Both the position numbers and the translations under genes were made by a program. From a phage, in sequence record PX994957.1: DNA of 64,000 nucleotides; one strand, written 5' to 3'. The notes under the pieces were generated by a model. The model was not told where the DNA came from. It saw only the letters and a list, made by a program, of their open reading frames with translations, and searched no databases. Each line of letters begins with the position of its first letter. The stretch's first letter is position 1. Shown piece by piece: positions 3,885-26,777 of this stretch.

Positions 3885-4442
3885 TTAAATGGAAAGATAC
3901 CATCCGTTGTAGTTGCTTTTTCTTACAACCTTACGAAGGTCTTCTCTGTCACCGATGAACTTCGGAGTGTACTGGATGACACCTGGATGAATTTCTTTAG
4001 TGTTGAATATAATTATACAGTCAGCGACTTGATGATTTAGAATGGGCCCTAAATTTATTCCAGAACCATATGGATACTCTCCGCTGCATCCCGTTGTTAC
4101 CGAAATCCAACGCGAGTCAGTTTGATGTGTTTTGACTTCTACACGAAGCCCGCAATATTTTGGATGCGCTAAAACATCCCATGCATACGTGTACGGGTCA
4201 TTAACGTCCTCTTGGCCTTTGTTAACATACCCGCTTAGCCAATCTGCTACAAAAAACTCTGCGTACACCGCGATACGGCATCTTTCGATAACTTCTGCTT
4301 TATCCTGGTTCGGGTTTTGTTTTAAAGAGTATCTTGCTGTATCAGCAATTTTGACCTTCATTTCACTAGTCAAATCACTGTTCGATAGGGTAAATGTCGG
4401 AATCTGAAATAGTCTCTGTAAACCCGGATTCGTTTTCTGCAT
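3885..4442 (-). CDS. denB: DenB endonuclease IV
   Basis: 185 aa, equal to T4 DenB length; ATG 4442 with SD AAAGGAAAG; adjacent to rIIB side. Confidence 0.85.
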   Translation of the reverse strand: MQKTNPGLQRLFQIPTFTLSNSDLTSEMKVKIADTARYSLKQNPNQDKAEVIERCRIAVYAEFFVADWLSGYVNKGQEDVNDPYTYAWDVLAHPKYCGLRVEVKTHQTDSRWISVTTGCSGEYPYGSGINLGPILNHQVADCIIIFNTKEIHPGVIQYTPKFIGDREDLRKVVRKSNYNGWYLSI

Positions 4443-4704
4443 TTAGACTTTCCTTTTTACCGCTGAGATAAGCGTTATATACTTTAAGAGTGCCGTAATA
4501 AATTCGGTCATTTTCATCTAAAGACTCACGGTCAAGTTCATCGAGTTCCTTTTTATCCATGACTATAACATCATTGCAATAAAGAAACCCAAGTTTTTTG
4601 TGTCCAAACTCAAATTTATTACAGTACACAATATTAGCGTGATGATTACCATGTAGAGAAATTTCTTTTATGTCGGAATCACCGATATTCATACAATAAA
4701 TCAT
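4375..4704 (-). CDS. hypothetical protein; 3' end overlaps denB start by 68 nt
   Basis: 109 aa; ATG 4704 with SD AAGGTG. Confidence 0.5.
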   Translation of the reverse strand: MIYCMNIGDSDIKEISLHGNHHANIVYCNKFEFGHKKLGFLYCNDVIVMDKKELDELDRESLDENDRIYYGTLKVYNAYLSGKKESLNAENESGFTETISDSDIYPIEQ

Positions 4705-22310: not shown

Positions 22311-23335
22311 ATCTTAGCATATTTAGATAGCCGCATTTTAGCCATCAACCCCTGGGCAATATTATTTTTCATATATTCCATAATTTGTTCAGGGGTTGCA
22401 CCTTCCTTTCTAATCATATCATTAACATCTTTTGATTTCCAGGGAGATTTATCCCAAAACATAACCCTTTCTCCTGCATCAACTAATTTAGTCATTCGCT
22501 TAATAGTGTCAGGATGACGAGGTTCATTATCTAAGACCCACACACGCCTATCTTTAAATGGAACAACTTCTAGGTCTAATTGACCACCCGTAATAGCTAT
22601 ACCATTTTCAATAAAAAGTGAATCTATAGGTCCTTCTAGAACATATACATCGCCATCTTTAACTCGTTCAACACCGTAAATTTTTGTTGCCTCAGGATAA
22701 GCTTTAATGGTGATATATTTTTGAGGAGCATCTTTCTTTAATGCACGTCCTTGAAAAGACTCAGCTTTTCCATTAGCATTATAAATTGGAATAACAAGAC
22801 GAGGCTCAGAAATTTCCTTTTTGTATGTTCCCGGTGCTATGCTATTAACTAATTTAGGCCATTCGGTTGTAAACCAAAGATATTTCCATTTATCCTTTGG
22901 AATACAACGAGCTTTTACATATTTTATAATTGGATGGTCTTCCGCCAGTTTATCTAATCTAACACACGACGGAAGAGATTTAATTATTTTCTTCTCAGGT
23001 TGTTTAGGAAGTTCTTTAGGTTTTTCTACTGGACGACTTTTACCTTTTTCTTTTCTTATTTCAAAGATATACTCACGATATAAATCGGGTTCAAACTCCT
23101 TTAAATATATTCCGATTGGTGCATGATAGTTACAGTTATAACAATGAATATTTCCTTCATTATTATCACCATAATACCATCCACGAGCTTTATTCTGATC
23201 GGTTTTTGAATCTCCACAAACAGGGCATCTAAACCGCAATTTAAAAGTTGAACTATTATTTACTTGTGTGAATTTAGGTAAATGAGCTAATGCACGATAC
23301 GCAAACTCATTATCAATCCAAGGTATTGATGACAT
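22307..23335 (-). CDS. 61: gp61 DNA primase
   Basis: 342 aa, equal to T4 gp61; N-terminal zinc ribbon CPVCGD...CYNC; TOPRIM-like VLEGPIDSL / VLDNEPRHPD. Confidence 0.9.
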   Translation of the reverse strand: MSSIPWIDNEFAYRALAHLPKFTQVNNSSTFKLRFRCPVCGDSKTDQNKARGWYYGDNNEGNIHCYNCNYHAPIGIYLKEFEPDLYREYIFEIRKEKGKSRPVEKPKELPKQPEKKIIKSLPSCVRLDKLAEDHPIIKYVKARCIPKDKWKYLWFTTEWPKLVNSIAPGTYKKEISEPRLVIPIYNANGKAESFQGRALKKDAPQKYITIKAYPEATKIYGVERVKDGDVYVLEGPIDSLFIENGIAITGGQLDLEVVPFKDRRVWVLDNEPRHPDTIKRMTKLVDAGERVMFWDKSPWKSKDVNDMIRKEGATPEQIMEYMKNNIAQGLMAKMRLSKYAKI

Positions 23336-23337
23336 TT

Positions 23338-23502
23338 TTACTCTTCTTTTTCTTTAGATTCCTCTTTCTTCTTTTTAGGAATCTGTTCAGGACCTTTATT
23401 TACTACAGCGCCCGACGTTGTTCCAGTAGAGATATTTTCAGGATTACCACCTGAATCTCCAGCGACCATATCTTCTTTGATAAATTCTTTATATGTTTTC
23501 AT
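23338..23502 (-). CDS. 54-aa Lys/Glu-rich protein
   Basis: ATG 23502 inside repeat copy A (TAATATG junction); MKTYKEFIKEDMVAGDSGGNPEN; absent from ORF track. Confidence 0.45.
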   Translation of the reverse strand: MKTYKEFIKEDMVAGDSGGNPENISTGTTSGAVVNKGPEQIPKKKKEESKEKEE

Positions 23503-23546
23503 ATTAACCTCTATTCATAAAAGCATTAAAAATTTGGTCATCAATA
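23500..23546. repeat. 47-bp direct repeat, copy A
   Basis: catattaacctctattcataaaagcattaaaaatttggtcatcaatag; 2 mismatches to copy B. Confidence 0.8.
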
Positions 23547-23860
23547 GATGGAATAGCAACCTTTTCGGCATCATTTAGCAAATCATTAATTTCATCAGAT
23601 AGCATAACACATGTGCCTTTATTTCCTGTAATTGTTACTGCGCAATTACGAACGTTTTCTTTATCAAATTTTAGGTTAATATTTTCGTAGTGAAAATCCT
23701 TTAATGCCGAATATATCTTTAAAATGAAATTGTCTTTTACTACAATAAACCCAACCTCACTATTAAAACGTGGTTCATGGAAACTGTAATAAACCTTTTC
23801 ATCTATAAAATCGTATGAAATTTTTTCCATTTTTAAATATGAAAATTCAGAACTATACAT
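23504..23860 (-). CDS. hypothetical protein (61.x-type) bracketed by 47-bp direct repeats
   Basis: 118 aa; ATG 23860 with SD AAAGGTTAAT; C-terminus SIDDQIFNAFMNRG shared with next gene. Confidence 0.6.
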   Translation of the reverse strand: MYSSEFSYLKMEKISYDFIDEKVYYSFHEPRFNSEVGFIVVKDNFILKIYSALKDFHYENINLKFDKENVRNCAVTITGNKGTCVMLSDEINDLLNDAEKVAIPSIDDQIFNAFMNRG

Positions 23861-23904
23861 ATTAACCTTTATTCATAAAAGCATTAAAAATTTGATCATC
23901 AATA
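23858..23904. repeat. 47-bp direct repeat, copy B
   Basis: catattaacctttattcataaaagcattaaaaatttgatcatcaatag; 358 bp from copy A. Confidence 0.8.
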
Positions 23905-24494
23905 GAAACATTTACTTTAGACTGTTTTTCTGATGGTAATTCATATCCACATATTACAATTTTGTGATCAATATCAAAATACACAGAAGCAATATGATTA
24001 ATGATGTTTTCAGTAAAGTCTAAATCAACATCAATATCTTTTTGACCACAGCCCAAAGGATAAATAATGCGAGTAATTCGATTATCTTTAACAAATATTC
24101 CACCGACATACTCTGTGCTGCGTTTAAAGTTTACACGTTTCCTAAATGAAAAATATTCAGGTTCTTTATGAGCCCGACTCATAGGACACAATGAGTAGCT
24201 AGAATAAGAGATGTCAAATCCTACACCTTCAATATGAGCCAACGCGTCATGATTAAACCAATTATAATCATATGCCAAATCCATTATATTGTAATATGTG
24301 AAAGGCACCGGATTAACATCATGTGTTGTACCTTTAAAATCTGCCCAGGCAACGATTTCGTTATCTTTAACAATTACAAAAATTGTGTCAATAAGATATC
24401 CACGGTTATTTTCATCAGGCGTTATATTATAACATTGTGCATCAGGAAATTTACCGTATTTAAACGGTGGATTTTTGTGCATATAATAAATCAT
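23862..24494 (-). CDS. hypothetical protein (61.2-type)
   Basis: 210 aa from ATG 24494 with SD AGGTGAATAAT; C-terminus SIDDQIFNAFMNKG. Confidence 0.6.
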   Translation of the reverse strand: MIYYMHKNPPFKYGKFPDAQCYNITPDENNRGYLIDTIFVIVKDNEIVAWADFKGTTHDVNPVPFTYYNIMDLAYDYNWFNHDALAHIEGVGFDISYSSYSLCPMSRAHKEPEYFSFRKRVNFKRSTEYVGGIFVKDNRITRIIYPLGCGQKDIDVDLDFTENIINHIASVYFDIDHKIVICGYELPSEKQSKVNVSIDDQIFNAFMNKG

Positions 24495-24495
24495 A

Positions 24496-24789
24496 TTATT
24501 CACCTGTGATTTCGGTTACGATATTTTTGTTATTAAAGTTTTTATCGCAATACAGAACATAATTATACTGCATTACACCACCAAACTTAAGTTGTTTTTG
24601 CACTTCAGCTTTCATTTTAGGACGATCGCGCTCAACAATATTCATAATATCCGCTTCAATTTGAGTTTCAACTTCAGTCTGATCTGCAGTCATAGACCAT
24701 TCACACAAGTCTTTATCATATCCTGCCATAGCAGGCTGAGCAGCACAAGAAGCCAAAGTAAAAATTGTAGCAAAAATAAATTTTTTCAT
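24496..24789 (-). CDS. sp: Sp (spackle) periplasmic protein
   Basis: 97 aa, equal to T4 Sp; signal peptide MKKFIFATIFTLASCAAQPAMA; SD GAGGAGATTATC. Confidence 0.7.
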   Translation of the reverse strand: MKKFIFATIFTLASCAAQPAMAGYDKDLCEWSMTADQTEVETQIEADIMNIVERDRPKMKAEVQKQLKFGGVMQYNYVLYCDKNFNNKNIVTEITGE

Positions 24790-24817
24790 GATAATCTCCT
24801 CAGTAGTTTATGTTTAT

Positions 24818-24847
24818 ATAATATCTCAATTTCCAACAAAAGTAAAC
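24818..24847 (-). promoter_or_regulatory. candidate early promoter upstream of sp
   Basis: GTTTAC (24842-24847) with A/T-rich -10 region 17-18 nt downstream. Confidence 0.4.
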
Positions 24848-24849
24848 AG

Positions 24850-25107
24850 CTATTTTAAAACTTCTGCATAATCACATGTTACAAACTGTTTCTCTAGCTT
24901 AACGATCTTACGAAAGTATCTTTTGCATTGACGAATCTGCCGTTTCGTAGGACGTACAGCAAACTTAATAAATTCCACTCGACCAAATGGAGGGCTTTCT
25001 TCTGCCGGAATATCTAACACCAATTCCCACGTATCCGCAATAAGTGCTTTGAATTGAGTATTTTTCCTGACGTTATACGGAGTAGGTTTAAATAAAACAA
25101 TATGCAT
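24850..25107 (-). CDS. hypothetical basic protein at the T4 61.4 position
   Basis: 85 aa; ATG 25107 with SD GAGGATAATATG; between sp and dmd. Confidence 0.55.
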   Translation of the reverse strand: MHIVLFKPTPYNVRKNTQFKALIADTWELVLDIPAEESPPFGRVEFIKFAVRPTKRQIRQCKRYFRKIVKLEKQFVTCDYAEVLK

Positions 25108-25108
25108 A

Positions 25109-25291
25109 TTATCCTCGGCAATCTACTTCACATACTTTCTTGTCATCAATGAAAGCTTTAACTAATGCTTTATTAACTTCAGCATATTGAGTAGTAGCCC
25201 ATTGAACGTCATCTTTCATCATTGTGGTTTCTTTAGTAAACATGCTTTCATTCTTAAACCACCCCATAAAAACTACCTTTACCAATTCCAT
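25109..25291 (-). CDS. dmd: Dmd antitoxin (inhibitor of host RnlA/LsoA toxins)
   Basis: 60 aa, equal to T4 Dmd; MELVKVVFMGWFKNESMF; adjacent to gene 41. Confidence 0.75.
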   Translation of the reverse strand: MELVKVVFMGWFKNESMFTKETTMMKDDVQWATTQYAEVNKALVKAFIDDKKVCEVDCRG

Positions 25292-25320
25292 AACAATCTC
25301 CTCATTTAACCAACAAGACT

Positions 25321-25350
25321 ACTATACCATAGTCTTGTCAGTTTGTAAAC
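25321..25350 (-). promoter_or_regulatory. T-even early promoter upstream of dmd
   Basis: GTTTAC (25345-25350), 18-nt spacer, TATAGT (25321-25326); dyad CAAGACTA / TAGTCTTG around -10. Confidence 0.5.
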
Positions 25351-26777
25351 TAAAATTTTAATTCATTTGCCAAAGCATCTAACTGAGCTCGAGTGGATTC
25401 ATTTCTTTGATAGCGATTCTGTTCAGCCTGAATCTGTTGTGAACCTGCTACTTCACTCACTTCAGTTGGAGTAGAATCTTGTTCAATTTCTACCCATTTT
25501 TGATTTCCTTTTTGAACACCCATCAAAAACTTATTCCACTTATTCTTATCACCATATCGTGATTTGATTTGCTTAATAAGTTGTTGTTCAGCAGCTGCTA
25601 GCTCCTCGGTTTCAATGACCGCAAGCATAAAATCAGCTGTTGCTGGAAGACCAGCAGATTCTGCAATATCGCTCATGTTAACATCGGAAGAGTCCCAAGC
25701 TTGTTTACCGACCTGTGCTGCAGTCCAAAGAACAGTTTCGGTTTCAACAGCCAGAGCACGCAATTCCTCTGCGATAGCTTTAACAGTTGTGTAACTATTT
25801 TCTGAATAAACTCTAATGCGGCAAGATTTACAAATACCTAGATAGTCGACAATAATGATTGTTGGAACAAAATTCTTCTTGAGCTTCAATTCATTCAAGA
25901 GAGACCTGAATGTGTTAGCATCTGCCCCACCAGTGGGATACTGTTTAACGATTAAACGACCAAGAGTAGATTTCTCACGCCATTTTTCCATTTTTCCTTT
26001 ATACTCAGCGTAAGAAATATGCCCATCATCAATGTCATCAAGAGAAACATCAAGCATATTAGCATCAATACGCTTAGCACAGACTTCTTCTGCCATTTCC
26101 ATGGAAATGTAAAGAACATTATGTCCGAGCTGCAAATAATCTGCTGCCAATGAACAAAGTCCTAATGATTTACCAACGTTAACGCCAGCCATTAAAACGT
26201 TCAGTGTCCCAGTCTCAGCTCCGCCTTTAGTAATTTTGTTTAGAATTCTGAGTTTAAATGGAACCTTACGAGCTTTATTCATATAAGATAGCCAACGTGC
26301 TTCGTAGTCATCCATCCAATCATGACCAACGTAACTATCAAATGAAATTGATAATGCTTGGCGCATGATGTCAGGAATAGCACCAACGTCCGGCATTTTC
26401 TTATTTCGTTTTTCCGGAGGAAGCTCAGCATTAGTTTGAATTTCGATTATTTTAGACGTAGCATTAAACATCGCCCTTTGCTGAACATATTTTTCTGTTT
26501 CTTTTACTAACCAGCTGTGGTCTTCCGGAGAATCAGCTAGTTTTGAAATAAGTGTTTTTACACCAGAATATTCTGTTTCAGTAAATGAACTATTTTCTAA
26601 TGCAACATTTAACGCATTAATAGATGGAACGCTATGGTACTCGTTAACATGAGATTTAATTAATTTGAACGTATTTTTAGCTGGACCACTTTCAAAATAT
26701 TCTGAATCCATATATGGCCAAACTTTTGAAAAATAAGCTTGATCAAATATGAGATGAGAAAGAATAATTTCTACCAC
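25350..26777 (-). CDS. 41: gp41 replicative DNA helicase (DnaB-like)
   Basis: 475 aa, equal to T4 gp41; Walker A GVNVGKS; GTG start behind SD AAGGAG. Confidence 0.93.
   Translation of the reverse strand: MVEIILSHLIFDQAYFSKVWPYMDSEYFESGPAKNTFKLIKSHVNEYHSVPSINALNVALENSSFTETEYSGVKTLISKLADSPEDHSWLVKETEKYVQQRAMFNATSKIIEIQTNAELPPEKRNKKMPDVGAIPDIMRQALSISFDSYVGHDWMDDYEARWLSYMNKARKVPFKLRILNKITKGGAETGTLNVLMAGVNVGKSLGLCSLAADYLQLGHNVLYISMEMAEEVCAKRIDANMLDVSLDDIDDGHISYAEYKGKMEKWREKSTLGRLIVKQYPTGGADANTFRSLLNELKLKKNFVPTIIIVDYLGICKSCRIRVYSENSYTTVKAIAEELRALAVETETVLWTAAQVGKQAWDSSDVNMSDIAESAGLPATADFMLAVIETEELAAAEQQLIKQIKSRYGDKNKWNKFLMGVQKGNQKWVEIEQDSTPTEVSEVAGSQQIQAEQNRYQRNESTRAQLDALANELKF

Follow-up and report, generated by a model that had tools for sequence, protein, structure and literature searches.

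In T4-like phages, dmd, tifA and adfA (61.2) have been grouped as an 'anti-TA island' (PMC9391042; also LeRoux et al. 2022, as cited in Srikant et al. 2022), and this island is among the closest described relatives of the locus studied here. The first gene of the island encodes Dmd, which in T4 inhibits the host toxins RnlA and LsoA (PMC9391042, PMC5308261, PMC8266594). The second, formerly 61.4, now goes by the name tifA (ToxN inhibitory factor A; Srikant et al. 2022, eLife, PMC9391042; Guegler et al. 2023, NAR, PMC10853763). Srikant et al. described 61.4 as encoding a putative 85-aa protein and as forming, together with dmd (61.5), a two-gene locus 'driven by an early T4 promoter', with another promoter located downstream of tifA (PMC9391042). 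The third, 61.2, is the gene now called adfA (PMC9391042, PMC11257639).

TifA, which binds RNA as well as ToxN, assembles into a high-molecular-weight ribonucleoprotein within which the toxin is inactive; in the proposed model, ToxN is trapped on abundant RNA, especially 16S rRNA (PMC10853763). RNA binding requires a Pro53-Thr54 cap and the residues K55, R56 and R59 of a C-terminal basic helix, and mutants at these five positions lose both binding and ToxN neutralisation (PMC10853763). Potency is modulated by residue 41, which lies in a loop at the predicted interface: F41S and F41H strengthen T4 TifA (PMC10853763). Binding and neutralisation of ToxN have been reported for the TifA proteins of T4, T2, T6 and RB69. 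The native, single-copy T4 tifA suffices against chromosomally encoded toxIN, on which tifA mutants plaque about 100-fold less well; T2, T4 and T6 remain restricted by plasmid-borne toxIN as long as dmd-tifA has not been amplified (PMC9391042), amplification being promoted by SegB (PMC13096335).

The neighbouring gene in T4, sp (61.3), encodes Spackle, a periplasmic protein with a disulfide bond and a mature length of 75 aa. Spackle inhibits the gp5 tail-spike lysozyme of incoming T-even phages and thereby gives superinfection exclusion (PMC7677548).

Gene content and map position

We analysed a stretch of phage DNA of 64,000 nucleotides (sequence record PX994957.1), referred to here as the window. 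With a probability of about 95%, the region described below is the canonical T4-type early-gene cluster 41/dmd/tifA (61.4)/sp/adfA (61.2) of an RB51/wV7-like Tequatrovirus (Table 1). Megablast searches with 1 kb and with 24 kb around the block showed that the window is ~98% identical over 24 kb to Tequatrovirus genomes of the RB51/wV7/Sa45lw type, and at least 80% of the 1-kb block is covered in 503 deposited phage genomes. Gene order and annotation match those of T4, RB51 and G157lw, and no finding speaks against the gene identities.

The core of the locus consists of three consecutive minus-strand ORFs of 60, 85 and 97 aa, taken from the ORF list and the sequence. A reading made from the sequence only had placed them immediately downstream of gene 41, and this position holds: the 475-aa ORF on that side differs from T4 gp41 at a single residue, and 58 nt separate its end from the start of dmd. 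Within the window the dmd-tifA-sp block is present in one copy. An amplified dmd-tifA locus of the kind seen in evolved T4 was considered and is ruled out for the window by this single copy.

The sequence-only reading had also recognised the 60-aa and 97-aa ORFs as Dmd and Sp from size, signal peptide and position, and both identifications are borne out by profile and structure-database matches. The 60-aa protein matches the Pfam family Dmd (PF17587) over positions 1-60 of 60 (1.8e-45, 153.5 bits, cut-off 27), as well as PHROG 2102 and the PDB entry 5hy3_B, 'Antitoxin Dmd' (9.6e-37). Compared with T4 Dmd (gp61.5; PDB 5HY3), it has the same length and the same first place in the dmd-tifA operon, and 59/60 residues are identical, the single substitution being I22T. 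The evidence for Sp is given further below.

Table 1 Features of the region from gene 41 to 61.1 in the window, in the order of transcription
Feature	Positions	Strand	Description
Gene 41, replicative helicase	25350-26777	-	475 aa; 474/475 identical to T4 gp41; fixes the map position of the block as its upstream neighbour
Early-promoter-like site upstream of dmd	25321-25349	-	TTTACA-17-TATAGT with TG extension, 10/12 matches; full T4-type -35 is GTTTAC
Hairpin after the gene 41 stop and before the dmd ribosome-binding site	25308-25343	-	15-bp inverted repeat; overlaps the -10 of the dmd promoter-like site
dmd (61.5)	25109-25291	-	60 aa; predicted antitoxin-like inhibitor of the host RNase toxins RnlA/LsoA
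tifA (formerly 61.4)	24850-25107	-	85 aa, basic; predicted RNA-binding inhibitor of the type III toxin ToxN
Early-promoter-like site between tifA and sp (60-nt spacer)	24818-24846	-	TTTACT-17-TATTAT, 9/12 matches
sp (61.3, spackle)	24496-24789	-	97-aa periplasmic precursor; predicted gp5 tail lysozyme inhibitor, superinfection exclusion
adfA (61.2), anti-DarT factor A	23862-24494	-	210 aa (ATG as in the RB51 annotation); next gene after sp
118-aa ORF (RB32ORF033c type)	23504-23860	-	Paralogue of the C-terminal half of AdfA, between adfA and 61.1
61.1	23338-23502	-	54 aa, low-complexity, Lys/Glu-rich; last uncharacterised small gene before primase gene 61

All genes of the block have already been characterised in T4, genetically and biochemically, and the sequences found here are 92-99% identical to their T4 counterparts. 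The biochemical mechanisms that we assign to the block proteins come from published work on T4 and RB69 and are predictions by homology for this phage. On that basis, this RB51/wV7-like phage would have the usual T4-type protection from the RnlAB/LsoAB, ToxIN and DarTG toxin-antitoxin systems. None of the six small proteins of the region matched a model of the PADLOC library, as is expected since these genes are anti-defence rather than defence genes.

TifA and its predicted action on ToxN

The 85-aa protein is identical to T4 gp61.4 at 84/85 positions over its full length. It matches Pfam DUF7279 (2.3e-20, 72.7 bits, cut-off 24.5) and PHROG 2375 (2.4e-38), and it is basic, with a pI of 9.83 and 17 Lys and Arg against 9 Asp and Glu. 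The sequence-only reading had assigned this basic ORF to the position of T4 61.4 and had suggested, with uncertainty, that 61.4 was renamed tifA as a ToxN inhibitor. Both the assignment and the suggestion proved correct: the near-complete identity to gp61.4 leaves no doubt about the homology, and the published tifA is 61.4 and no other gene of T4 (PMC9391042, PMC10853763). The exact 85-aa sequence occurs in other deposited phages, for example BECP11, MLF4 and UTI-E4.

The ORF is short, its Pfam label is merely a DUF, and nearly all records call its product a hypothetical protein, all of which would be compatible with a chance open frame. This reading is ruled out by the pattern of codon differences and by the breadth of conservation, and we regard its probability as practically nil. 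Relative to T4, tifA shows 13 synonymous differences and one non-synonymous difference, and relative to RB51 the numbers are 10 and one. At least 80% of the gene is present in 629 phage records, including Mosigvirus homologues that are 57% identical and in which the basic helix is invariant. In T4, the TifA protein has been detected and its function shown (PMC9391042). By the codon evidence, the 85-aa ORF is a true protein-coding gene under purifying selection.

The window protein shares with T4 TifA its length, its place directly after dmd and the early-promoter sequence upstream. It also shares the residues on which function depends in T4: the P53-T54 helix cap and the RNA-binding residues K55, R56 and R59 do not vary between the window, T4, RB51 and RB69, and loop residue 41 is Phe, the T4 state. 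The sole difference from T4 TifA, I83V, is probably neutral, because it sits in a C-terminal extension that RB69 TifA lacks entirely. A PDB sequence search with TifA returned nothing at E <= 1. A single-sequence AlphaFold2 model had low confidence (pLDDT 44, pTM 0.34) and is an inadequate basis for fold searches; it places a helix at residues 55-72, which is weakly consistent with the published model.

With 99% identity to the T4 protein, the window TifA is predicted to bind and neutralise ToxN and to protect the phage from toxIN. If it works as described for its homologues, the basic C-terminal helix, capped by Pro53-Thr54 and carrying K55, R56 and R59, would bind RNA, while the N-terminal sheet and the residue-41 loop would contact ToxN. 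The type III toxin would thereby be locked, for the most part on 16S rRNA, into an inactive ribonucleoprotein, leaving the phage transcripts uncut. The neighbouring product, Dmd, would bind and block the HEPN RNase toxins RnlA and LsoA after their labile antitoxins have decayed.

An alternative view of the 85-aa protein is that it acts mainly as a general RNA-binding early protein, for example on ribosomes or mRNA, and inhibits ToxN as a side activity, apparent mainly when the protein is over-expressed. Such a view could account for the strong restriction of wild-type T2, T4 and T6, with one tifA copy each, by plasmid-borne toxIN (PMC9391042), and for reports that several TifA homologues at a greater distance failed to neutralise any tested ToxN or TenpN toxin. 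It is hard to reconcile with the genetics in T4, where frameshift and deletion mutants of tifA plaque ~100-fold less well on chromosomal toxIN specifically, the catalytic mutant toxIN(K55A) having no such effect (PMC9391042). The selectivity of the phenotype, a loss of plaquing of tifA knockouts confined to toxIN hosts at no cost on toxIN-free hosts, has already been largely shown for T4. In addition, TifA is specific among ToxN homologues, the mutations by which ToxN escapes lie at the predicted interface, and tifA lies by two further anti-toxin genes, dmd and adfA. We therefore consider a mainly general RNA-binding role very improbable and retain ToxN inhibition as the predicted function of the window TifA.

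The potency of this inhibition can be estimated by analogy. Because the window tifA is the F41 allele and is present in a single copy, it should behave towards toxIN as in T4: one copy should overcome toxIN at the chromosomal level but not at the plasmid level, unless the locus is amplified. As the window encodes the weaker F41 allele, restriction by high-copy toxIN is predicted unless dmd-tifA is amplified, which may be of use when such phages are chosen or engineered for hosts with toxIN plasmids.

Probable expression signals of dmd, tifA and sp

Two early-promoter-like sites flank the dmd-tifA pair. The sequence-only reading had given early promoters at 25321 and about 24818, and sites were found at both places, these numbers being the ends of the -10 hexamers. 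A consensus promoter scan by itself does not exceed chance in such AT-rich DNA (17 sites against 12.1 +/- 3.2 expected), and the argument for the two sites comes from their conservation. The site upstream of dmd is identical in T4 and RB51 except for one spacer base, and the site in the tifA-sp spacer is kept in both phages with a single difference, located in the -10 region. Conservation is nearly base for base at both sites and takes in the T4-style GTTTAC -35 element. From this conservation, and from the promoters described upstream of dmd and downstream of tifA in T4, we infer that both sites function as promoters.

Within minutes of infection, host sigma-70 RNA polymerase would start just downstream of gene 41, yielding a bicistronic dmd-tifA mRNA. 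The second early promoter would drive a transcription unit that begins with sp and runs on into adfA (61.2) and the following genes.

The tifA start codon follows the dmd stop codon after 1 nt (GAGGAtaatATG), and its Shine-Dalgarno sequence, GAGGA, lies four bases upstream of the start, within dmd. Owing to this arrangement, dmd and tifA are probably translationally coupled. Near-identical, strong ribosome-binding sites, TGAGGAGATT, precede dmd and sp.

The hairpin between gene 41 and dmd has a predicted RNA folding energy of -19.3 kcal/mol (z = -5.8 relative to shuffled sequences) and is conserved in T4 and RB51. It lacks a T-run and qualifies neither as an intrinsic terminator nor as a member of an Rfam family: scans of positions 23200-25500 found no terminator and, at E <= 1, no Rfam match. 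A possible role of the hairpin is to mark the 3' ends of gene 41 transcripts or to make these ends more stable.

Spackle, AdfA and the AdfA-half cassette

The 97-aa ORF encodes Sp, with matches to Pfam T4_Spackle (PF25676; 4.7e-44, 149.4 bits, cut-off 27) and to the PDB entries 6x6o_A (1.8e-58) and 7cn6. It is 92% identical to T4 Spackle (gp61.3; PDB 6X6O, 6XC0, 7CN6), with which it shares its 97-aa length, the 22-residue signal peptide and the Cys29-Cys81 pair. The eight substitutions relative to T4 cluster at residues 53, 58 and 69 and in the last seven residues; the window Sp is closer to the RB51 allele, from which it differs once. A signal peptide covering residues 1-22 and ending in AMA|G, together with the conserved Cys29 and Cys81, fits the published mature, disulfide-bonded periplasmic protein of 75 aa (PMC7677548). 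The mature product would be exported to the periplasm, where it would inhibit the gp5 tail lysozyme of T-even phages that superinfect the cell.

The sequence-only reading had treated dmd, the 85-aa ORF and sp together as a counter-defence block. For dmd and tifA this stands, but not for sp, as Spackle serves superinfection exclusion and has a promoter-like site of its own. The label implies that the three genes make up one co-regulated module against host defence: they are adjacent, on the same strand and all early, and they are kept together in hundreds of Tequatroviruses. However, Sp acts in the periplasm on the lysozyme of other phages and not on the host immune system (PMC7677548), a separate promoter-like site lies in the 60-nt tifA-sp spacer, and the amplifications by which T4 escapes span dmd-tifA only (PMC9391042). 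The organisation of RB69 points in the same direction. There, 61.4 and sp are separated by an insertion of the superinfection immunity genes imm and imm.1 (positions 4012-4690 of the RB69 locus compared; 24790-24849 in the window); sp thus groups with superinfection-exclusion genes, and dmd-tifA stays paired. A single module comprising all three genes appears very improbable, and we favour a dmd-tifA pair followed by an sp gene with a separate role.

RB69 also carries two extra ORFs between 41 and dmd. With insertions in RB69 both here and between 61.4 and sp, the 41-to-61 interval is, by comparison of gene order, an apparently plastic accessory region, of which the window has the compact, T4-type arrangement.

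The coordinates of the dmd-tifA-sp block agree with those of the earlier reading, but its left boundary was drawn too short, since the anti-TA island reaches position 23862 by way of adfA. The 210-aa product matches Pfam AdfA (PF23813) over its full length (1.5e-136, 453 bits) and is 79% identical to T4 gp61.2 and 83% identical to RB69 AdfA. Its sequence is mosaic, with an N-terminal third that is RB69-like and nearer to RB69 than to T4. At the position of RB69 R164 it has His, the allele reported to neutralise DarT1; deletion of adfA from T4 gave no DarTG1 phenotype (PMC11257639). The window AdfA would be expected to inhibit the ADP-ribosyltransferase toxin DarT. Compared with the published anti-TA island, the window agrees in its three anti-toxin genes and in their order, its adfA being the His allele, and differs from T4 by the addition of the 118-aa AdfA-half paralogue between adfA and 61.1.

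This additional ORF matches positions 113-211 of the Pfam AdfA profile (2.3e-08) and is 34% identical to residues ~107-210 of AdfA. It is absent from T4 and G157lw, and RB51 annotates it as 'similar to gp61.2'. The neighbouring 61.1 protein matches PHROG 1823 only and has no match in Pfam. Srikant et al. called other genes of the region 'attractive anti-toxin candidates'. The anti-toxin island may extend beyond three genes, the 118-aa paralogue inhibiting a host toxin such as a different DarT homologue and 61.1 another, although we regard this as a tentative and rather unlikely proposal. The dmd-tifA-sp block itself brings no new biology, and the one modest lead of this locus is the AdfA-half cassette, with 61.1, as possible further anti-toxin genes.

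The 118-aa ORF is found in 333 phage records, compared with 642 that have TifA, which corresponds to roughly half of the TifA-carrying Tequatroviruses. It is flanked by 49-nt direct repeats that are 96% identical (23500-23548 and 23858-23906) and whose spacing of 358 nt equals the length of the cassette. Each repeat spans the shared last 14 codons, SIDDQIFNAFMN(K/R)G, and the stop/start junction. This arrangement suggests that the cassette is gained or lost by recombination between the repeats, which would explain its patchy distribution.
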